A stretch of DNA of 64,000 nucleotides from a virus (taxonomy: Duplodnaviria; Caudoviricetes): positions 14,065 to 78,064 of the IMG/VR virus record IMGVR_UViG_2700989080_000001; one strand, 5' to 3'. Below are positions 26,859-63,461 of this stretch, one piece after another. A model generated the notes under the pieces. That model worked only from the letters and a program-made list of their open reading frames with translations, was not told the DNA's origin and ran no database searches. A program made the translations under genes and the position numbers. Positions within the stretch are counted from its first letter, which is position 1. Every line of letters starts with the position of its first letter.

Positions 26859-26901
26859 TCGCAAAAATTACACAGCCTATAATGAGACCCCTATGAAAGG
26901 A
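26859..26901 (+). promoter_or_regulatory. Phage promoter + leader + RBS, copy 1
   Basis: TCGCA-N14-TATAAT-GAGACCCCTATGAAAGGA. Confidence 0.85.
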
Positions 26902-26907
26902 ACTGTT

Positions 26908-27352: not shown

Positions 27353-27395
27353 TCGCATATTTTACACACCCTATAATGAGACCCCTATGAAAGGA
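27353..27395 (+). promoter_or_regulatory. Phage promoter copy 2
   Basis: TCGCA-N14-TATAAT-GAGACCCCTATGAAAGGA. Confidence 0.85.
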
Positions 27396-27404
27396 AAGAT
27401 CACT

Positions 27405-28226: not shown

Positions 28227-28269
28227 TCGCAAGAATTACACGCCTTATAATGAGACCCCTACGAAAGGA
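28227..28269 (+). promoter_or_regulatory. Phage promoter copy 4
   Basis: TCGCA-N14-TATAAT-GAGACCCCTACGAAAGGA. Confidence 0.85.
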
Positions 28270-28277
28270 CGCCCATC

Positions 28278-28630: not shown

Positions 28631-28718
28631 AAGGAGAGACTCGTAGCTCAGTTGGAATGAGCGTCGTCAGCAATGACGAAGGTCGCAGGTTCGAGTCCTG
28701 CCGAGCTCTTCTTTTTTT
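28631..28718 (+). ncRNA. tRNA-like RNA lacking an anticodon loop
   Basis: D arm GCTC/GAGC, T arm GCAGG-TTCGAGT-CCTGC, anticodon arm TCGTCA-GCAA-TGACGA, extended acceptor-like stem, T-run, no CCA. Confidence 0.75.
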
Positions 28719-28722
28719 GCCT

Positions 28723-28765
28723 TCGCAGAAAAAACACGCACTATAATGAGACCCCTACGAAAGGA
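28723..28765 (+). promoter_or_regulatory. Phage promoter copy 6
   Basis: TCGCA-N14-TATAAT-GAGACCCCTACGAAAGGA. Confidence 0.85.
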
Positions 28766-28773
28766 AAAAGAAC

Positions 28774-29288: not shown

Positions 29289-29331
29289 TCGCATTAAAAA
29301 CACACCATATAATGAGACCCCTACGAAAGGA
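29289..29331 (+). promoter_or_regulatory. Phage promoter copy 8
   Basis: TCGCA-N14-TATAAT-GAGACCCCTACGAAAGGA. Confidence 0.85.
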
Positions 29332-29336
29332 TTACC

Positions 29337-29588: not shown

Positions 29589-29653
29589 GATCCAGAACTG
29601 AACTCCCTAACACGGAGTTTCAGTTTTATTCTTTCACGGACAAAGGTCTCCAA

Positions 29654-29696
29654 CCGCATAAATTACACACCCTATAATGAGACCCCTATGAAAGGA
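29654..29696 (+). promoter_or_regulatory. Phage promoter copy 9
   Basis: CCGCA-N14-TATAAT-GAGACCCCTATGAAAGGA. Confidence 0.85.
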
Positions 29697-29702
29697 ACTA
29701 TC

Positions 29703-30280: not shown

Positions 30281-30323
30281 TCGCAGAAAAAACACACCCT
30301 ATAATGAGACCCCTATGAGAGGA
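30281..30323 (+). promoter_or_regulatory. Phage promoter copy 10
   Basis: TCGCA-N14-TATAAT-GAGACCCCTATGAGAGGA. Confidence 0.85.
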
Positions 30324-30329
30324 TATGCC

Positions 30330-30422: not shown

Positions 30423-30505
30423 ATCGAAAAGCTTGAAGCTCCCTAACACGGAGTTTCAGCTTTCTGTTTTTCCTCTCACCCACACCTATCCGAAAGGCCA
30501 TATCT

Positions 30506-34469: not shown

Positions 34470-34512
34470 TCGCAGAAAAAACACGACCTATAATGAGACC
34501 CCTATGAAAGGA
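34470..34512 (+). promoter_or_regulatory. Phage promoter copy 11
   Basis: TCGCA-N14-TATAAT-GAGACCCCTATGAAAGGA. Confidence 0.85.
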
Positions 34513-34518
34513 ACAACA

Positions 34519-34755
34519 ATGTCTGACCAGAACGAGAACATCGTCATCGAAGAAGACGCAACCCCCGTTCGTTTCCGTCGCCTCAAGAAGGTCCTGAGCA
34601 AGATCGAAGAAAACTCAGCCATCATCGCCATCGCAACTGCGACCGCGGTGAGTGCTGCTGGAATCATCGCGCTCAATCGACTCGACAAGAAGACGACGGA
34701 GACGATCGAGGTTGCCGAACCCAAGGTGATCGAGACCGCTCCCACGGAAGACTGA
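34519..34755 (+). CDS. Small membrane protein
   Basis: Cassette gene followed by terminator at ~34775-34821. Confidence 0.7.
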   Translation: MSDQNENIVIEEDATPVRFRRLKKVLSKIEENSAIIAIATATAVSAAGIIALNRLDKKTTETIEVAEPKVIETAPTED

Positions 34756-34853
34756 TATTCCCCCACAGAGATCGAAAAAGAGAAAGGCTTAGTAAAGAAA
34801 TTTACTAGGTCTTTCCTTTTTGCTTTCACGGACAAAGAGGATTGACGCCACAA

Positions 34854-35428: not shown

Positions 35429-36061
35429 ATGCTGAAGCAGACCGTTGAGTACACCGACTTCGACGACAACCGTTGTGCAGAGACTCTGTACTTCAACCTC
35501 ACCAAGACCGAGCTCGCCGAGAACGCTCACCTCACGGACCGGCTGGAAAAGATGCAGAAGATGTTCGGTGGTGAGAAGCGTCAGCTCGAGACGTCGGAGA
35601 TCCAGCAGCTTCTCGATCTGGTCAAGACGATCATGCGCATTTCCTACGGTGTTCGCAGCGCCGACGGAAAGCGATTCATCAAGACGGAGGAGCAGTGGGT
35701 CGAATTCACCCAGACTGCAGTCTACGACGAGTTCCTCATTTCCATGTTCACGGATCCGGACAAGATGTTTGCATTCATGTACGGCATCATGCCGGCGGAC
35801 ATGCGTGAGCAGGCGAAGGTAGAGGCAGAGCGACTCATGTCGGAGCGGACGAACCAGTCCACCGATATTCCGACGCCTCCTCCTGCTGCATCCGCTACAC
35901 CTGTGGACATGCCGATCACGCAGGCCAACCCTTCGGTCCAGATCACGATGGATCCGAATCAGTCGGCAGGGCCTCAGCCTACCCAGGAGCAGATGGCCGC
36001 ATACATGCGTGACCAGCAGGCTCGCGGCTTGATGACGCAGCCGAACTACCTGCAGGGCTGA
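35429..36061 (+). CDS. Conserved hypothetical protein with Pro/Gln-rich tail
   Basis: AAGGAG RBS; strong codon bias. Confidence 0.75.
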   Translation: MLKQTVEYTDFDDNRCAETLYFNLTKTELAENAHLTDRLEKMQKMFGGEKRQLETSEIQQLLDLVKTIMRISYGVRSADGKRFIKTEEQWVEFTQTAVYDEFLISMFTDPDKMFAFMYGIMPADMREQAKVEAERLMSERTNQSTDIPTPPPAASATPVDMPITQANPSVQITMDPNQSAGPQPTQEQMAAYMRDQQARGLMTQPNYLQG

Positions 36062-36068
36062 TCTATAT

Positions 36069-36187
36069 TTGAGCGAGAGGGGTTTGGCAAGGGTCCTTTG
36101 TAGGGGTCTCGCCCTAGTCCGGATGCCAAACTTAAACGACAGCCGTAGCGCTGTGGGGAAGCAGCAAACATGCGCCCTCGATCTCAA
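36069..36187 (+). ncRNA. Putative structured RNA displaying the antisense of the promoter leader/RBS
   Basis: GTTTGGCA/TGCCAAAC stem enclosing GGTCCTTTGTAGGGGTCTC. Confidence 0.5.
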
Positions 36188-36206
36188 TCATATTCTCGTG
36201 CCTGAT

Positions 36207-36249
36207 TCGCACGAAAAACACACCCTATAATGAGACCCCTACGAAAGGA
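36207..36249 (+). promoter_or_regulatory. Phage promoter copy 12
   Basis: TCGCA-N14-TATAAT-GAGACCCCTACGAAAGGA. Confidence 0.85.
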
Positions 36250-36256
36250 CCTGGTA

Positions 36257-36502
36257 ATGACCAAGCTGGAAATGCTGAAGCTCGCCGTTTCTTCGATCGT
36301 TGGTGTCGGTACCTCCAAGATCGTTCGATCCATCATTGCCAACAATGTCGAAATCGATTCTCCGGTAGACCAAGTTACGGTCACCGCGGGATCGTTCGTC
36401 GTTGGCGCGATGGTTGCGGACGCATCGAAGGACTACACCGATGCCAAGATCGACGAGATTGTCGAGATCTTCAAGACCATCAAAGAAACCACCAAGAACT
36501 GA
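36257..36502 (+). CDS. Hypothetical protein
   Basis: Cassette gene; terminator at ~36513-36550. Confidence 0.7.
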   Translation: MTKLEMLKLAVSSIVGVGTSKIVRSIIANNVEIDSPVDQVTVTAGSFVVGAMVADASKDYTDAKIDEIVEIFKTIKETTKN

Positions 36503-56957: not shown

Positions 56958-57074
56958 AACAGCCATATTTACGGGTCCGTAGAGGGTTCTAGATTGCCTT
57001 CTACGGGCCTGTAATGTGGAGAGTGCACAATCCTGTGAAGTAGGGGTCTCAGCCCTTCACAGAGGCACTCAGCG

Positions 57075-57099
57075 TCGCACGGAAAACACGCCATATGAT
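57075..57099 (+). promoter_or_regulatory. Phage promoter copy 13 (TATGAT variant)
   Basis: TCGCA-N14-TATGAT with ACAC core. Confidence 0.7.
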
Positions 57100-57166
57100 G
57101 AGAACCCACTAGCGAAACCAGACTCAGGCCCTCAACTGAGATCCAGGTCGTTGGTGGGTTTTCATC
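57097..57166 (+). ncRNA. Putative hairpin sRNA
   Basis: 19-bp stem GATGAGAACCCACTAGCGA/TCGTTGGTGGGTTTTCATC with apical CTCAG/CTGAG hairpin. Confidence 0.5.
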
Positions 57167-57195
57167 TTACTGGCCCTATATTTTTACGAGAGGGT

Positions 57196-57354
57196 ATGGA
57201 ACTGCAAATGTTGTGCAGAGACATCAAGAAGCTGAGGCGCAAACGCAACCGCACGCTCATCGAGATATTCCTGCTCTACTACTTCGGCACCATCGCCGGA
57301 TTCCTGGTAGTGGCATTCGTTCTCCGCATGAGTGGAATGTACGCAGGCCAATAG
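57196..57354 (+). CDS. Small membrane protein
   Basis: GAGAGGG RBS; basic stretch then hydrophobic helix. Confidence 0.5.
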   Translation: MELQMLCRDIKKLRRKRNRTLIEIFLLYYFGTIAGFLVVAFVLRMSGMYAGQ

Positions 57355-57368
57355 GGGGTTGATACAAG

Positions 57369-60740: not shown

Positions 60741-63461
60741 GTGCTGATCAACGAAGATGACTACTTGGCACACTACGGTATTCTGCGTCGTTCGGGCAGG
60801 TATCCTTGGGGATCTGGTGGAACTCCCGAACAGAACCATCGCTCGTTCATGGGCATGGTAGGAGCTTTGAAGGCTGAAGGAATGTCTGATGCCGACATCG
60901 CTAAGGGTTTCGGTATCTCCACTCGAGACTATCTCGCTCTCAAGTCGATCGCTGTCAACGAGATCAAGGCAGCCAACCGCTCTCGTGCGGAACTTCTTCG
61001 TGCTACCGGCATGTCTCACAAAGCAATCGCTGAGGAGATGGGCCTTGCTGGTGAGTCTTCGGTTCGGGCTTTGTTGGCTCCCGGTGCTGCCATGCGAGCT
61101 AATCAGAATCAAGCCGTTGCCGATCTTCTCAAGGATCAGATCAAAGATGGCGGGTATCTCGACATTGGGGCCGGCAACGAGCTCTATGTTGGCATGTCTC
61201 GCACTCAGTTCGACACCGTGGTAGCAGGTCTTCGTAACGAAGGCTATGTGGTTCATCCGGTTCAGGTCGATCAGGTTGGAACCAACACCAAGACTCTGAT
61301 CAAGGTTCTGGCTCCTGAAGGAACCGAGTACAAGGACATCGTCACTAATCCGGAAGCGATCAAGTCTATCGCAGTCAAGCTGAAGGATGGCGAGATCGAA
61401 CACGTCCGTCCTCCTGAGATGCTGGATTCTAAGCGAGTCAAGGTCGTCTACGATGAGGATGGAGGTTCTCAGGCTGATGGTACGATGTACATTCGTCCGG
61501 GAGTCAGTGATCTCGATCTTGGTGGTGCACAGTATGCTCAGGTACGAATTGCTGTCGATGGCACGCACTACCTCAAGGGAATGGCTGTCTACAAGAATGA
61601 CCTTCCTCCTGGTGTAGATGTTGTCTTCAACACCAACAAGACCAACACCGGCAACAAGCTCGATGCTTTGAAGAAGATGAACCGTCTTCCCGAGCTCGAT
61701 GCAGATGGCAAGCCTGTCAAGGATGCTAAGGGTGATGTCGTCTTCTCTGACAAGATCGACATGTCGAATCCTTTCGGTGCAACCATCAAGCCTGGTGGTC
61801 AGCGTGGGGTTCTGAATGTTGTGAATGAGGAAGGCGACTGGAGTAAGTGGTCTAAGAACCTTCCTTCGCAGATGCTTTCCAAGCAGCAGCCTACGATTGC
61901 CAAGGAACAGCTGGACCGACTCTTCAACGACAAGAACTCCGAGCTCAATGAGATCATGGCTCTGACCAACCCTGCGGTCAAGAAGAAGTTGCTTCAGTCC
62001 TATGCCGATGGTGTGGATGCTGATGCTGTACATCTTCAGGCAGCACACATGCCTCGACAGGCTACACAGGTAATCCTTCCGATTCCTGTGGACAAGATGC
62101 GAGACACAGAGATCTATGCGCCCAACTTCCGTGATGGAGAACGGGTTGCTCTGGTTCGCTTCCCTCATGGTGGAACCTTCGAGATCCCTGAGCTCACAGT
62201 CAACAACCGCAATCCTGAAGCTAGGAAACTTCTAGGGACCAATGCTAAGGATGCCGTCGGCATCAATGCCCGTGTTGCTGAGCGTCTGTCTGGTGCGGAC
62301 TTCGATGGCGATACTGTCCTTGTGATTCCCAATGATCGTGGGAAGATCAAGAGCTCGCCTGCTCTCGAGGGTCTTAAGGACTTCAATCCTCAGAAGAGGT
62401 ACCCTGCTTACGAGGGTATGAAGCCTATGACTGCTAAGCAGAAGCAGCAGGAGATGGGTAGTGTCTCCAACCTCATCGCCGACATGACGATCAAGGGAGC
62501 CACCAACTCTGAGCTCGCCGCTGCTGTCCGTCACTCTATGGTTGTGATTGATGCTGAGAAACATAAGCTCAATTACAAACAGTCTGCGATTGACAACAAC
62601 ATCGTGGGTCTCAAGAAGAAGTACCAGGCTCGACCTGATGGTTCTCCTGGTGGTGCTGCAACGCTGATCTCTCGGAGTACTTCTGAGGTTCGTGTCAACG
62701 AGCGCAAGATCGGGTACAAGATCAACCCCGATACTGGTGAGAAGATCTTCACCGAGACAGGTAAGGGCTACACCAAGACTAAGGTCAACCCTAAGACTGG
62801 TGTGGTTACGGAGAAGTTCATCCCCCGTACTCAGAAGTCTACGAAGGGTGCTGAAGCTAAGGATGCCCATGAGCTTTCTTCGGGTACTCGAATGGAACAG
62901 ATCTATGCTGATCATTCGAATCGTCTGAAGGCTTTGGGTAACTCTGCTCGGAAGACTTTGATGGCTACGAAGTCGACGCCCTATTCCGACTCTGCTCGTA
63001 AGGTGTACGCCTCTGAAGTAAAGGCACTGGATGCGAAGCTTAACATCGCACTCAAGAATGCACCCCGAGAAAGACAAGCCCAGCTCATAGCCAATGCCAC
63101 CATCAAACAGAAGCGTGATGCTAATCCAGGGATGGAGCATGACGAACTGAAGAAGGTGAAAGCTAAAGCATTGGTTACTGCTCGTGCTCGAACAGGCGCA
63201 AGCAAAGAGCTGATCAACATCACTGACAGTGAGTGGGAGGCCATCCAAGCTGGTGCAGTGAGCACATCCAAGCTCACTAAGATCCTTGACAACACCAACC
63301 TTGATCGAGTCAAGGAGCTGGCCACACCTCGCAAGAACACAGTGATGACTGACCTCAAACAGCAGCGTGCTCGTCAGCTTCTCGCAAGCGGGCGCACTCA
63401 GTCTGAGGTTGCCGACATCCTTGGCGTTCCCCTATCCACCCTCTCGTCTAGCTTGCAGTAA
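60741..63461 (+). CDS. Putative single-chain double-psi-beta-barrel RNA polymerase with HYG tag and HTH domains
   Basis: YLAHYG; QVR....YLKGM; LVRFP; LSGADFDGD; HSMVVIDAEK; two N-terminal and one C-terminal HTH. Confidence 0.75.
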   Translation: MLINEDDYLAHYGILRRSGRYPWGSGGTPEQNHRSFMGMVGALKAEGMSDADIAKGFGISTRDYLALKSIAVNEIKAANRSRAELLRATGMSHKAIAEEMGLAGESSVRALLAPGAAMRANQNQAVADLLKDQIKDGGYLDIGAGNELYVGMSRTQFDTVVAGLRNEGYVVHPVQVDQVGTNTKTLIKVLAPEGTEYKDIVTNPEAIKSIAVKLKDGEIEHVRPPEMLDSKRVKVVYDEDGGSQADGTMYIRPGVSDLDLGGAQYAQVRIAVDGTHYLKGMAVYKNDLPPGVDVVFNTNKTNTGNKLDALKKMNRLPELDADGKPVKDAKGDVVFSDKIDMSNPFGATIKPGGQRGVLNVVNEEGDWSKWSKNLPSQMLSKQQPTIAKEQLDRLFNDKNSELNEIMALTNPAVKKKLLQSYADGVDADAVHLQAAHMPRQATQVILPIPVDKMRDTEIYAPNFRDGERVALVRFPHGGTFEIPELTVNNRNPEARKLLGTNAKDAVGINARVAERLSGADFDGDTVLVIPNDRGKIKSSPALEGLKDFNPQKRYPAYEGMKPMTAKQKQQEMGSVSNLIADMTIKGATNSELAAAVRHSMVVIDAEKHKLNYKQSAIDNNIVGLKKKYQARPDGSPGGAATLISRSTSEVRVNERKIGYKINPDTGEKIFTETGKGYTKTKVNPKTGVVTEKFIPRTQKSTKGAEAKDAHELSSGTRMEQIYADHSNRLKALGNSARKTLMATKSTPYSDSARKVYASEVKALDAKLNIALKNAPRERQAQLIANATIKQKRDANPGMEHDELKKVKAKALVTARARTGASKELINITDSEWEAIQAGAVSTSKLTKILDNTNLDRVKELATPRKNTVMTDLKQQRARQLLASGRTQSEVADILGVPLSTLSSSLQ

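Follow-up and report, generated by a model that had tools for sequence, protein, structure and literature searches.

What is a single inverted copy of a phage's shared leader sequence doing in a gap between its genes? The question arises at positions 36062-36256 of a 64,000-nucleotide stretch of viral DNA, referred to here as the window (bases 14065-78064 of IMG/VR record IMGVR_UViG_2700989080_000001, which totals 78,064 bp). Its closest DNA relative is Rhodococcus phage ReqiPepy6, at ~80-93% identity to the window, with Gordonia DJ-cluster phages (Deejayvirinae) and Streptomyces Scapunavirus phages as more distant relatives. A preliminary description of this DNA had proposed that a hairpin in the gap displays the antisense of a leader, Shine-Dalgarno sequence included, that many of the phage's small genes have in common. 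Comparative evidence indicates that this anti-leader hairpin is the long arm of a conserved folded RNA, which in our assessment represents a new RNA family and varies the theme of phage antisense RNAs in a new way. The timing of phage gene expression is usually explained by proteins; here we find a conserved RNA, uncatalogued in Rfam, that may switch a whole class of leader-bearing genes at once. The RNA with its helices, the promoter-leader units and the second hairpin introduced below all lie on the + strand.

The folded RNA and its distribution

The anti-leader itself is a 19-nt sequence, GGTCCTTTGTAGGGGTCTC (36092-36110), which differs from the reverse complement of the leader GAGACCCCTACGAAAGGACC at 36232-36251 by one C only, the counterpart of the leader G that had been described as bulged. 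This 19-mer occurs once in the window, against 0.00 occurrences expected. The flanking stem is present just as first drawn (GTTTGGCA at 36082-36089 with TGCCAAAC at 36124-36131), and the gap 36062-36256 holds nothing but mechanical open reading frames (ORFs); relatives differ across it by 1-nt indels and paired substitutions, a pattern that fits a non-coding RNA. Nor is the inverted copy a reversed promoter, as had also been argued: the bases that precede it on the minus strand, GGACTAGGGC, contain no TATAAT. It is the placement of the antisense at the apex of the stem that needs amending. The stem covaries and stands, but the comparative data add a further helix above it (P2a, AGGG pairing with CCCT, 36090-36093/36112-36115), so that the antisense lies mostly within an 18-nt apical loop (36094-36111), with a conserved core GGGGTCTC at 36103-36110, and the stem becomes one arm of a three-way RNA.

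The whole element spans ~115 nt (36071-36185) and is built from four helices. P1 closes it with an outer part, GAG pairing with CTC (36071-36073/36183-36185), and an inner part, GAGGG pairing with CCCTC (36077-36081/36175-36179), whose GGG/CCC pairs are invariant. The stem of the preliminary description, P2, has 8 pairs and carries on its 3' side the internal-loop motif CCGGA (36119-36123), where CCGG is invariant in alignments of both 26 and 44 sequences; P2 and P2a together form the long arm. There follow a nearly invariant junction, TTAAACGACAGCCG (36132-36145), and the variable hairpin P3 (GCTG, loop TGGGGAAG, CAGC; 36150-36165), of which the position is kept but the sequence is not. Across the family the consensus order is P1 (a variable outer part plus GGG/CCC), P2 of 8 bp, P2a of 4-9 bp and an apical loop of ~11-25 nt; the 3' half continues with the internal loop CCGGA, the junction (C)TTAAACGAC(A/C)(G/A)CCG, the variable P3 and AAAnnTG(C/T)GCCC.

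Is this fold real? In an alignment of 44 distinct members, 97.3% of the modelled cells are paired, compared with 82.9% upon shuffling and 34-57% when the partners are slid against each other, bearing in mind that this alignment was fitted to the covariance model and therefore leans towards it. Both sides have changed in 10 of 15 pairs, and the 26-sequence seed supports the fold as well. P2 is 98.6% paired in the 44 sequences, with 6 of its 8 pairs changed on both sides; its 23 distinct variants comprise 184 pairs, namely 172 Watson-Crick, 9 G-U, 2 A-C and 1 other, and this excess of G-U over A-C favours an RNA read from the + strand. The three modelled pairs of P2a (95.5% paired) all show double changes, as exemplified by AGGC/GCCT, AGGTG/CACCT, AGGATC/GGTCCT, GGGTTT/AAACCC, AAGTCTCG/CGAGACTT and AGAACCTTC/GAAGGTTCT. 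The two helices that vary in length, P2a and outer P1, were also assessed without an alignment, by comparing duplexes between cognate and non-cognate flanks. For P2a, cognate duplexes average -8.6 kcal/mol and non-cognate ones -5.6 (37 pairs, of which 15 beat 90%); for outer P1 the means are -6.4 and -3.8 kcal/mol (42 distinct flank pairs, of which 18 beat 90% of non-cognates; examples are GATGCG/CGCATC, GGTATGG/CCATACC and GAGGTG/CACCTC). Even the junction takes part, as the A in GACA and the T in TGCG (36171) vary together. All five aligned sequences with GACCG have GG(C/T)GCCC on the 3' side and those with GACA have TG(C/T)GCCC, an exchange of A-U for C-G that couples GAC[A/C] to [U/G]G(Y)GCCC.

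These helices speak to the possibility that the inverted GAGACCCC core acts as a site in DNA, bound by a promoter-recognising protein (the polymerase or a regulator) that would form a roadblock or insulator ahead of the next gene block. One could cite in its favour that no other part of the promoter units is as conserved as the motif, that block boundaries have inverted copies a short way ahead of leader promoters, and that Cluster K mycobacteriophages likewise have one reversed start-associated copy, for which the portion of the article consulted offers no explanation (PMC3203893). A double-stranded site needs no helices, however, whereas P1, P2 and P2a show covariation, with a preference for G-U on the + strand, and the motif stands unpaired in the loop of every scaffold that carries it. 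We therefore consider a DNA-level site very improbable.

Three further structural ideas were set aside. An inner hairpin TAGGG/CCCTA was demoted to an alternative pairing, since it is P2a (AGGG/CCCT) that covaries, although the two are nested in the members L021 and L028. A T-loop or tRNA-like apex is ruled out by the length and sequence of the loop, neither of which is kept across lineages. A pseudoknot between the GGGG of the loop and C-runs in P3 is not general: many uncultured versions do have a C-run in the P3 loop, but P3 has GGGG in this phage and CAAC in Gordonia, where versions such as GCTGC-CAAC-GCGGC, GCTTC-CAAC-GAGGC and GCTGT-CCAC-ACGGC are found.

The covariance model of the family, R1, matches the window at 36068-36191 over 124 of 124 model positions (102.6 bits, E 2e-28), a match that is partly by construction because the window sequence is part of the seed. 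The family signature is found there in full: P1, P2 and P2a, along with GCA, CCGGATGC, TTAAACGAC, CCG and TGYGCCC in that order. Neither the window nor the whole 78-kb record has a second R1 match. As intergenic DNA the element is conserved, and unannotated, in 69 phage records (50 from Gordonia, 16 from Streptomyces, 2 from Rhodococcus and 1 that is likely spurious); the 12 that were read show paired substitutions in P2 and in the outer closing helix. A pattern scan added 18 IMG/VR loci and 121 metagenome loci, 29 of the latter being confirmed by R1 as full-length members outside the seed (47-109 bits), and three further uncultured genomes contain members too. The element occurs once per genome and directly 3' of a gene with the PF23803 domain, a synteny checked in the window and in phages Annihilus and Gill. 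Besides about 40 uncultured relatives in which the element was found, this phage group includes well above one hundred SEA-PHAGES isolates in culture, which come from Gordonia, Streptomyces and Rhodococcus.

Rfam 15 returned no match at E up to 10 for 35800-36500, none at the element at E up to 1 for three other members (L005, L009 and L221), and nothing but the tRNA for the whole window at the gathering score. A strict pattern found no full element in 185,579 prokaryote genomes and one partial match (20 bits), so that under this pattern the element looks phage-only. In the literature on these phage groups and on the YonO-like polymerase described below we found no description of the RNA, the leader or the promoter; Summer et al. 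2011 may discuss promoters of Pepy6, and the supplements of bioRxiv 10.1101/842583 were outside the scope of the search.

The loop and the shared leader

The unit that adjoins the element (36207-36256) consists of TCGCA at 36207-36211, a 14-nt spacer, TATAAT at 36226-36231 and the leader at 36232-36251, with GAAAGGA at 36243-36249 and an ATG at 36257. Eight such units, when aligned, share the layout TCGCA, 14 nt, TATAAT, GAGACCCCTAYGAAAGGA, 5-8 nt, ATG, and relatives have the same architecture. The 20-mer leader has eight + strand copies at no more than three mismatches in the window (0.01 expected). Its first 11 nt, GAGACCCCTAY, occur exactly nine times on that strand, each time at the first base of a leader (26884-26903 for the first copy, then 27378-27397, 28252-28271, 28748-28767, 29314-29333, 29679-29698, 30306-30325, 34495-34514 and 36232-36251), and GAGACCCC directly follows TATAAT in all nine units. 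The same 11-mer is found in forward orientation 9-12 times (at most one mismatch; 7-10 exact) in each of the phages Pepy6, Gill, Secretariat, Annihilus and Kenosha, and is frequent in uncultured relatives. A sigma-70 scan with 16-18 nt spacing does not detect the leader promoters because their TCGCA-to-TATAAT spacer is 14 nt; in Streptomyces phages TATAAC takes the place of TATAAT. Given this spacer, the exact boundary between TATAAT and G, and the TATAAC of the Streptomyces phages, we think that the units are probably promoters of a phage polymerase that starts at or near the G.

A candidate reader of these TCGCA..TATAAT-GAGACCCC promoters is encoded at 60741-63461 (+ strand), a YonO/RdRP-like RNA polymerase of 906 aa with helix-turn-helix (HTH) ends (phrog_4291, 1332 bits), although its matches to RdRP and to a Sigma70_r4-like HTH are weak and mostly under the Pfam cut-offs. 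A YonO-like enzyme has been described for the whole supercluster, with promoters going unmentioned in the part of the preprint consulted (bioRxiv 10.1101/842583).

Some features of the leader cassettes may be recorded here. Several end in conserved terminator-like hairpins (CTCCCTAACACGGAG, then TTTCAG and a T-run; at 29600-29630 and 30433-30470), which makes the small genes look like promoter-gene-terminator units. A tRNA-Ala gene (anticodon AGC) lies between two cassettes at 28636-28711, and its 3' end reaches the T-run that precedes the promoter at 28721-28747. In the complete uncultured genome G001, a leader promoter (L221 15909-15950) is followed only by GAGACCCCCUACAUGGGGGUACAGUUUU, with the C-run of the leader forming a terminator-like hairpin; the predicted transcript would be ~28 nt long.

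The loop core GGGGUCUC, lengthened to GGUCCUUUGUAGGGGUCUC in this phage, complements GAGACCCC. Among the 44 members the core reads GGGGTCTC in 27, GGGGTC in 12, GGTCTC in 2, GGGTCTC in 1 and otherwise in 2, and GTAGGGGTC is present in 25. Located at the 3' end of the loop, the core is kept while the remainder of the loop varies in length and sequence. Duplex prediction, the check that had been suggested, singles out the leaders: all nine are by far the best + strand targets in the window, with duplex energies of -26.9 to -28.8 kcal/mol (background, -10.8 +/- 3.0), and every one of the 15 strongest predicted targets among 9137 sampled windows overlaps a leader. That the antisense is more than a chance inverted repeat is supported by its display in the loop of a covarying RNA, by the kept core and by its predicted partners. 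The further claim that it covers the Shine-Dalgarno sequence holds for this phage and ReqiPepy6 but not as a general feature, complementarity to GAAAGGA being peculiar to these two; the loops of most relatives pair with leader positions 1-11 only.

Does the loop follow the leader when the leader changes? A leader promoter lies near the element in 21 of the 44 members, as judged by a pattern search within 140 nt downstream. In these, contiguous Watson-Crick pairing between loop and own leader runs to 5-11 nt, compared with 4.0-5.1 nt for shuffled loops, and at least 7 contiguous pairs are found in 20 of the 21 if G-U is included. The paired window slides by lineage but always covers ACCCC, extending over positions 1-8 or 1-11 in most members, 3-12 in Gordonia and 4-14 in G001. 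In G001 all five exact ATGAGACCCC leaders have five C and the loop, CTGTAGGGGGT, has five G; it forms 11 bp with the adjacent leader and pairs over at least 9 nt with seven leader units in the 19 kb examined. L060 carries an insertion at the same spot in loop and leader, and the leader of L116, changed to GAGAUC, retains its pairing through G-U.

For 14 of the 21 members with a nearby leader promoter, the first Watson-Crick pair of the match is precisely the one at the G that follows TATAAT, a number that rises to 16 when G-U is counted. This would also be expected if the RNA were a decoy or template mimic for the YonO-like polymerase, drawing it off promoters in the fashion of 6S RNA or being copied into a short RNA. 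Over +1 to +11 of the phage promoters, the loop is identical in sequence to the template strand of GAGACCCCTAC; the 14-nt spacer and the TATAAC of Streptomyces phages fit a host sigma-A promoter poorly; and the phage polymerase is a relative of RdRP with sigma-r4-like HTH ends. Yet nothing in the RNA corresponds to the TCGCA box or to the TATAAT duplex, which recognition would require, and its fold is a three-way junction with hairpin loops rather than the duplex with an open bubble that characterises 6S RNA. The sliding of the match in Gordonia and G001 suits RNA pairing better than a template with a fixed +1. On balance, a decoy strikes us as quite improbable.

Anti-leader sequence is not confined to the conserved element. 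The 11-mer GTAGGGGTCTC has a second + strand copy at 57040-57050, within the 14-nt loop of a hairpin built on a different scaffold (57021-57070: GAGTGC, CTGTGAAG, loop TAGGGGTCTCAGCC, CTTCACAG, GCACTC), which is followed by a variant promoter, TCGCA..TATGAT-GAGAACCCAC (57076-57109). The gene-free region around it, 56960-57200, folds at -114.2 kcal/mol (z -8.7). Homologues of this region were found in ReqiPepy6 only, which keeps it, annotated as a CDS (gp100). The wider stretch 56958-57368 includes a hairpin A (56971-57007), whose 5' arm is itself anti-leader-like, the hairpin just described (B), whose loop holds the anti-leader, and a cassette without an ORF (57076-57165) in which the TCGCA..TATGAT promoter is followed by a transcript (GAGAACCCAC...) predicted to fold into a 19-bp hairpin ending UUUUCAUCUU. 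Among the Gordonia and Streptomyces relatives, Gill, Kenosha and Annihilus each have one anti-leader placed 22-30 nt upstream of one leader; read-through RNA would there fold the leader into a stem, which in Gill also takes in the Shine-Dalgarno sequence.

The scaffold, in turn, is found with other loops. Shorter paralogues in G001 and G002 (L221 12955-13032, L221 13731-13815 and L222 290-397) share the core GGGG, a hairpin, CTTAAACGAC, a short linker and GCGCCC but differ in their loops, and suggest a wider scaffold family with exchangeable loops. The DNA examined held no convincing targets for these loops. Of the three, one comes immediately after a leader-type promoter, and two are followed ~20-25 nt later by a ribosome site.

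A proposed antisense to a shared 5' tag, and other readings

We give roughly an even chance to the reading that the element is an antisense RNA directed at the common 5' leader, whether it pairs in cis, in trans or in both ways. Transcription would then start at or near the G of GAGACCCC, giving all transcripts of the leader-promoter class one common 5' tag. The loop would base-pair with the initial 8-11 nt of these transcripts and, in this phage, with the Shine-Dalgarno sequence too. Pairing might take place in cis on read-through RNA that reaches the unit at 36232 and in trans on the other leaders, and the outcome would be lowered translation or stability of the whole class. The closing helix P1, the invariant junction CUUAAACGAC..CCG..UGYGCCC and the variable hairpin P3 would serve as the scaffold that holds out the apical loop. 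What the loop presents is the conserved complement of a 5' motif that exists in many copies; this complement recurs in two scaffolds and follows a leader variant, and RNA-RNA pairing is the simplest account of it. The reading builds on observations of sequence, a covarying fold, conservation, single copy, synteny and a complementarity that co-varies in part; that the RNA accumulates, where transcription starts, that the pairing occurs in vivo and that it has an effect are what we infer from them. Of the two functions put forward in the preliminary description, a block on all leader-bearing mRNAs or a cis switch, the first retains a displayed, covarying loop with the leaders as its best predicted targets, whereas a switch acting in cis only is disfavoured by the comparison with relatives given below.

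A number of points weigh against an antisense function. The usual sigma-A spacing from TATAAT would put the start inside or after GAGACCCC, in which case loop types lacking GUA would have nearly no target in promoter-initiated mRNA. One RNA gene facing nine consensus promoters is a stoichiometry problem for a trans repressor, and P3 loops often have C-runs, which would offer the GGGG of the loop another pairing partner. Individual members match poorly: pairing covers ~4 bp in L089 and amounts to 5 Watson-Crick pairs in L116, a C-C mismatch interrupts the centre of the G004 match, L033 sets five C opposite four G, and L037 is also a counter-example. Loop and leader are both nearly invariant, so that the case for co-variation rests on few lineages. 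In 23 of the 44 members the pattern search finds no leader-type promoter within 140 nt downstream, and the loop motif is kept; one of the 23, L060, has a variant leader that the pattern misses. Finally, when 42 leader promoters from five sources are considered, only 3 have an upstream complement of at least 8 nt within 170 nt, and all three are those behind the conserved element.

Members that keep the loop but not the neighbouring leader also bear on a narrower proposal, that the element is nothing other than a cis switch that makes read-through transcripts conceal the ribosome site of the gene that follows (36257). The minimum free energy (MFE) fold of 36060-36260 does pair 36091-36111 with 36232-36252 (-64.7 kcal/mol), the spacing from loop to +1 is constant at 119-124 nt wherever the promoter is present, and relatives have local cis hairpins. 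Cis action on read-through RNA is therefore plausible where a leader follows. It is not the general function, however, because the loop is also kept where no leader adjoins it, in ReqiPepy6, in Tanis-type Gordonia phages and in many uncultured members; in ReqiPepy6 and the Tanis-type phages the loop is unchanged and the next gene has no such leader, and the 23 members just mentioned point the same way. A switch that works in cis only has, in our view, a low probability.

Alternatively, the element may be a structural, processing or 3'-end module of the PF23803 mRNA, with its likeness to the leader being a relic of an inverted promoter copy. It might then stabilise the message, bind a nuclease or another protein, or separate gene blocks as an insulator or a terminator of non-canonical type, and the loop would be kept for a protein or tertiary contact. 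Where the RNA begins matters here. A -10-like hexamer, TATATT (36064-36069), lies 2 nt ahead of P1 and may be the element's own promoter; (T/C)ATATT precedes P1 in the Rhodococcus versions, most Gordonia versions and several uncultured ones. It is absent from Streptomyces-type versions, in which the element begins 3-10 nt past the stop codon and leaves no room for a promoter, as an mRNA module would have it, and in some members CATATT is part of P1 or of a small upstream hairpin. The same difference between versions bears on a put/nut-type cis antiterminator, an RNA that follows its promoter at the 5' end of a transcript and acts on the polymerase transcribing it: the Rhodococcus and Gordonia versions have the -10-like hexamer ahead of P1, the Streptomyces-type versions do not. 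We note separately that (G/C/T)ATATT recurs directly after stop codons, ahead of hairpins or folded RNAs (34753-34825, 36059-36069 and 56964-56970), where it could be the -10 element of a second promoter class or a piece of a 3' end signal.

A module of the upstream mRNA would also account for the gene boundary always being the same, for junction nucleotides that are more strictly invariant than the loop, and for the mini-paralogues with the same core and other loops; a contact between the C-runs of many P3 loops and the GGGG of the loop would suit it as well. As an intrinsic terminator, defined by a G+C-rich hairpin and a T-run, the element does not qualify: no T-run follows P2 (the next bases are TTAAACGAC) or P1 (AATCATATTC), and a terminator scan of 36071-36195 on the + strand came back empty. 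As for a relic, an 8-mer would not survive the divergence that rewrote P1, P2, P2a and P3, its recurrence in the second scaffold at 57021-57070 would not be expected, and it would not track the five-C leader variant of G001; the junction, moreover, is unchanged where the loop changes. We regard an mRNA module as unlikely.

Returning to antisense pairing, one may tentatively extend it to a tag/anti-tag system, a possibility we view with some doubt. Promoters probably read by the YonO-like polymerase would start transcripts with GAGACCCC, and the scaffolded RNA, together with the extra hairpins, would carry the anti-tag. If this were true, a single RNA could address the messages of an entire temporal class together, whether to recognise, silence, sort or sense them, there might be feedback on the polymerase by imitation of its template, and the mini-paralogues would be a family of scaffolded guide RNAs. 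Should the pairing alone be real, it would already constitute a one-RNA switch for a gene class, provide a handle on the start position of the leader promoters, offer a possible explanation for the single reversed start-associated sequence of Cluster K mycobacteriophages, and furnish a compact, orthogonal set of promoter, leader and anti-leader for actinobacterial genetics.

Genomic setting and known systems

The element sits at the junction of two gene blocks. Structural genes occupy 1-26 kb of the window and a block of small genes 26.8-36.2 kb, and replication genes extend from 36.5 kb onward. The gene immediately upstream (35429-36061, + strand; PF23803, Phage_TAC_17; phrog_4282) has a product that matches a tail assembly chaperone (E 4e-56), yet it sits 9 kb beyond the tail genes, among early-looking small genes. 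Downstream, the leader at 36232 serves an 81-aa gene (36257-36502, + strand; phrog_7539), and small genes similar to it come after the RNA element in most relatives. At the left end of the window, a 538-aa protein (47-1663) has a weak 2'-5' RNA ligase or LigT-like N-terminal domain (Pfam E 1e-6) and could have a bearing on the chemistry of phage RNA ends.

How does the element compare with systems already described? The leader, for its part, recalls the start-associated sequence (SAS), with its form ESAS, of Cluster K mycobacteriophages, a 13-bp motif GGGATAGGAGCCC located 3-7 bp before start codons. According to the portion of the article consulted (PMC3203893), its authors left open whether the partner is RNA or protein, and four phages carry a single copy in the opposite orientation. 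In both cases the non-structural half of an actinophage genome repeats, in one orientation, a short asymmetric motif with a Shine-Dalgarno core right where genes begin. The motifs themselves differ, however (GGGATAGGAGCCC against GAGACCCCTAYGAAAGGA), the leader is fixed to a TATAAT box and SAS, as far as that portion goes, is not, and the reversed SAS copy has yet to be placed in a folded RNA, so that we do not count the leader as an SAS.

The resemblance to 6S RNA lies in the imitation of promoter DNA, the loop here being the template strand of +1 to +11. In contrast to 6S RNA, there is no open-bubble duplex architecture and no Rfam match, and the polymerase involved would be a single-subunit enzyme of the YonO type.

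Two small RNAs of enterobacterial phages come closer in kind. The CI RNA of satellite phage P4 is a small processed RNA with a loop complementary to repeats in the transcripts it controls, and it brings about premature termination in an immunity circuit. The likeness is that of a loop set against repeated target sequences; homology was compared by the Rfam scan only, which gave no match. The c4 RNA is a stable small RNA cut from a longer transcript by RNase P, and Rfam includes a C4 family. In phages P1 and P7, c4 is a structured antisense RNA (Citron & Schuster 1990, cited in PMC8201110). It is phage-encoded, like the element described here, and its exposed sequences pair with a ribosome-site region in the same transcription unit, on the same strand and downstream of the RNA, as set out in the portion of PMC8201110 consulted. 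The correspondence with c4 is one of complementarity only, in that the loop is predicted to pair with the leader and GAAAGGA at the energies given above (-26.9 to -28.8 kcal/mol). The folds differ, and there is no likeness in sequence or model (no Rfam match at E up to 10). Whereas c4 has one target and acts in lysogenic immunity, the anti-leader belongs to a lytic phage and faces nine identical candidate targets at the 5' end of a promoter class.

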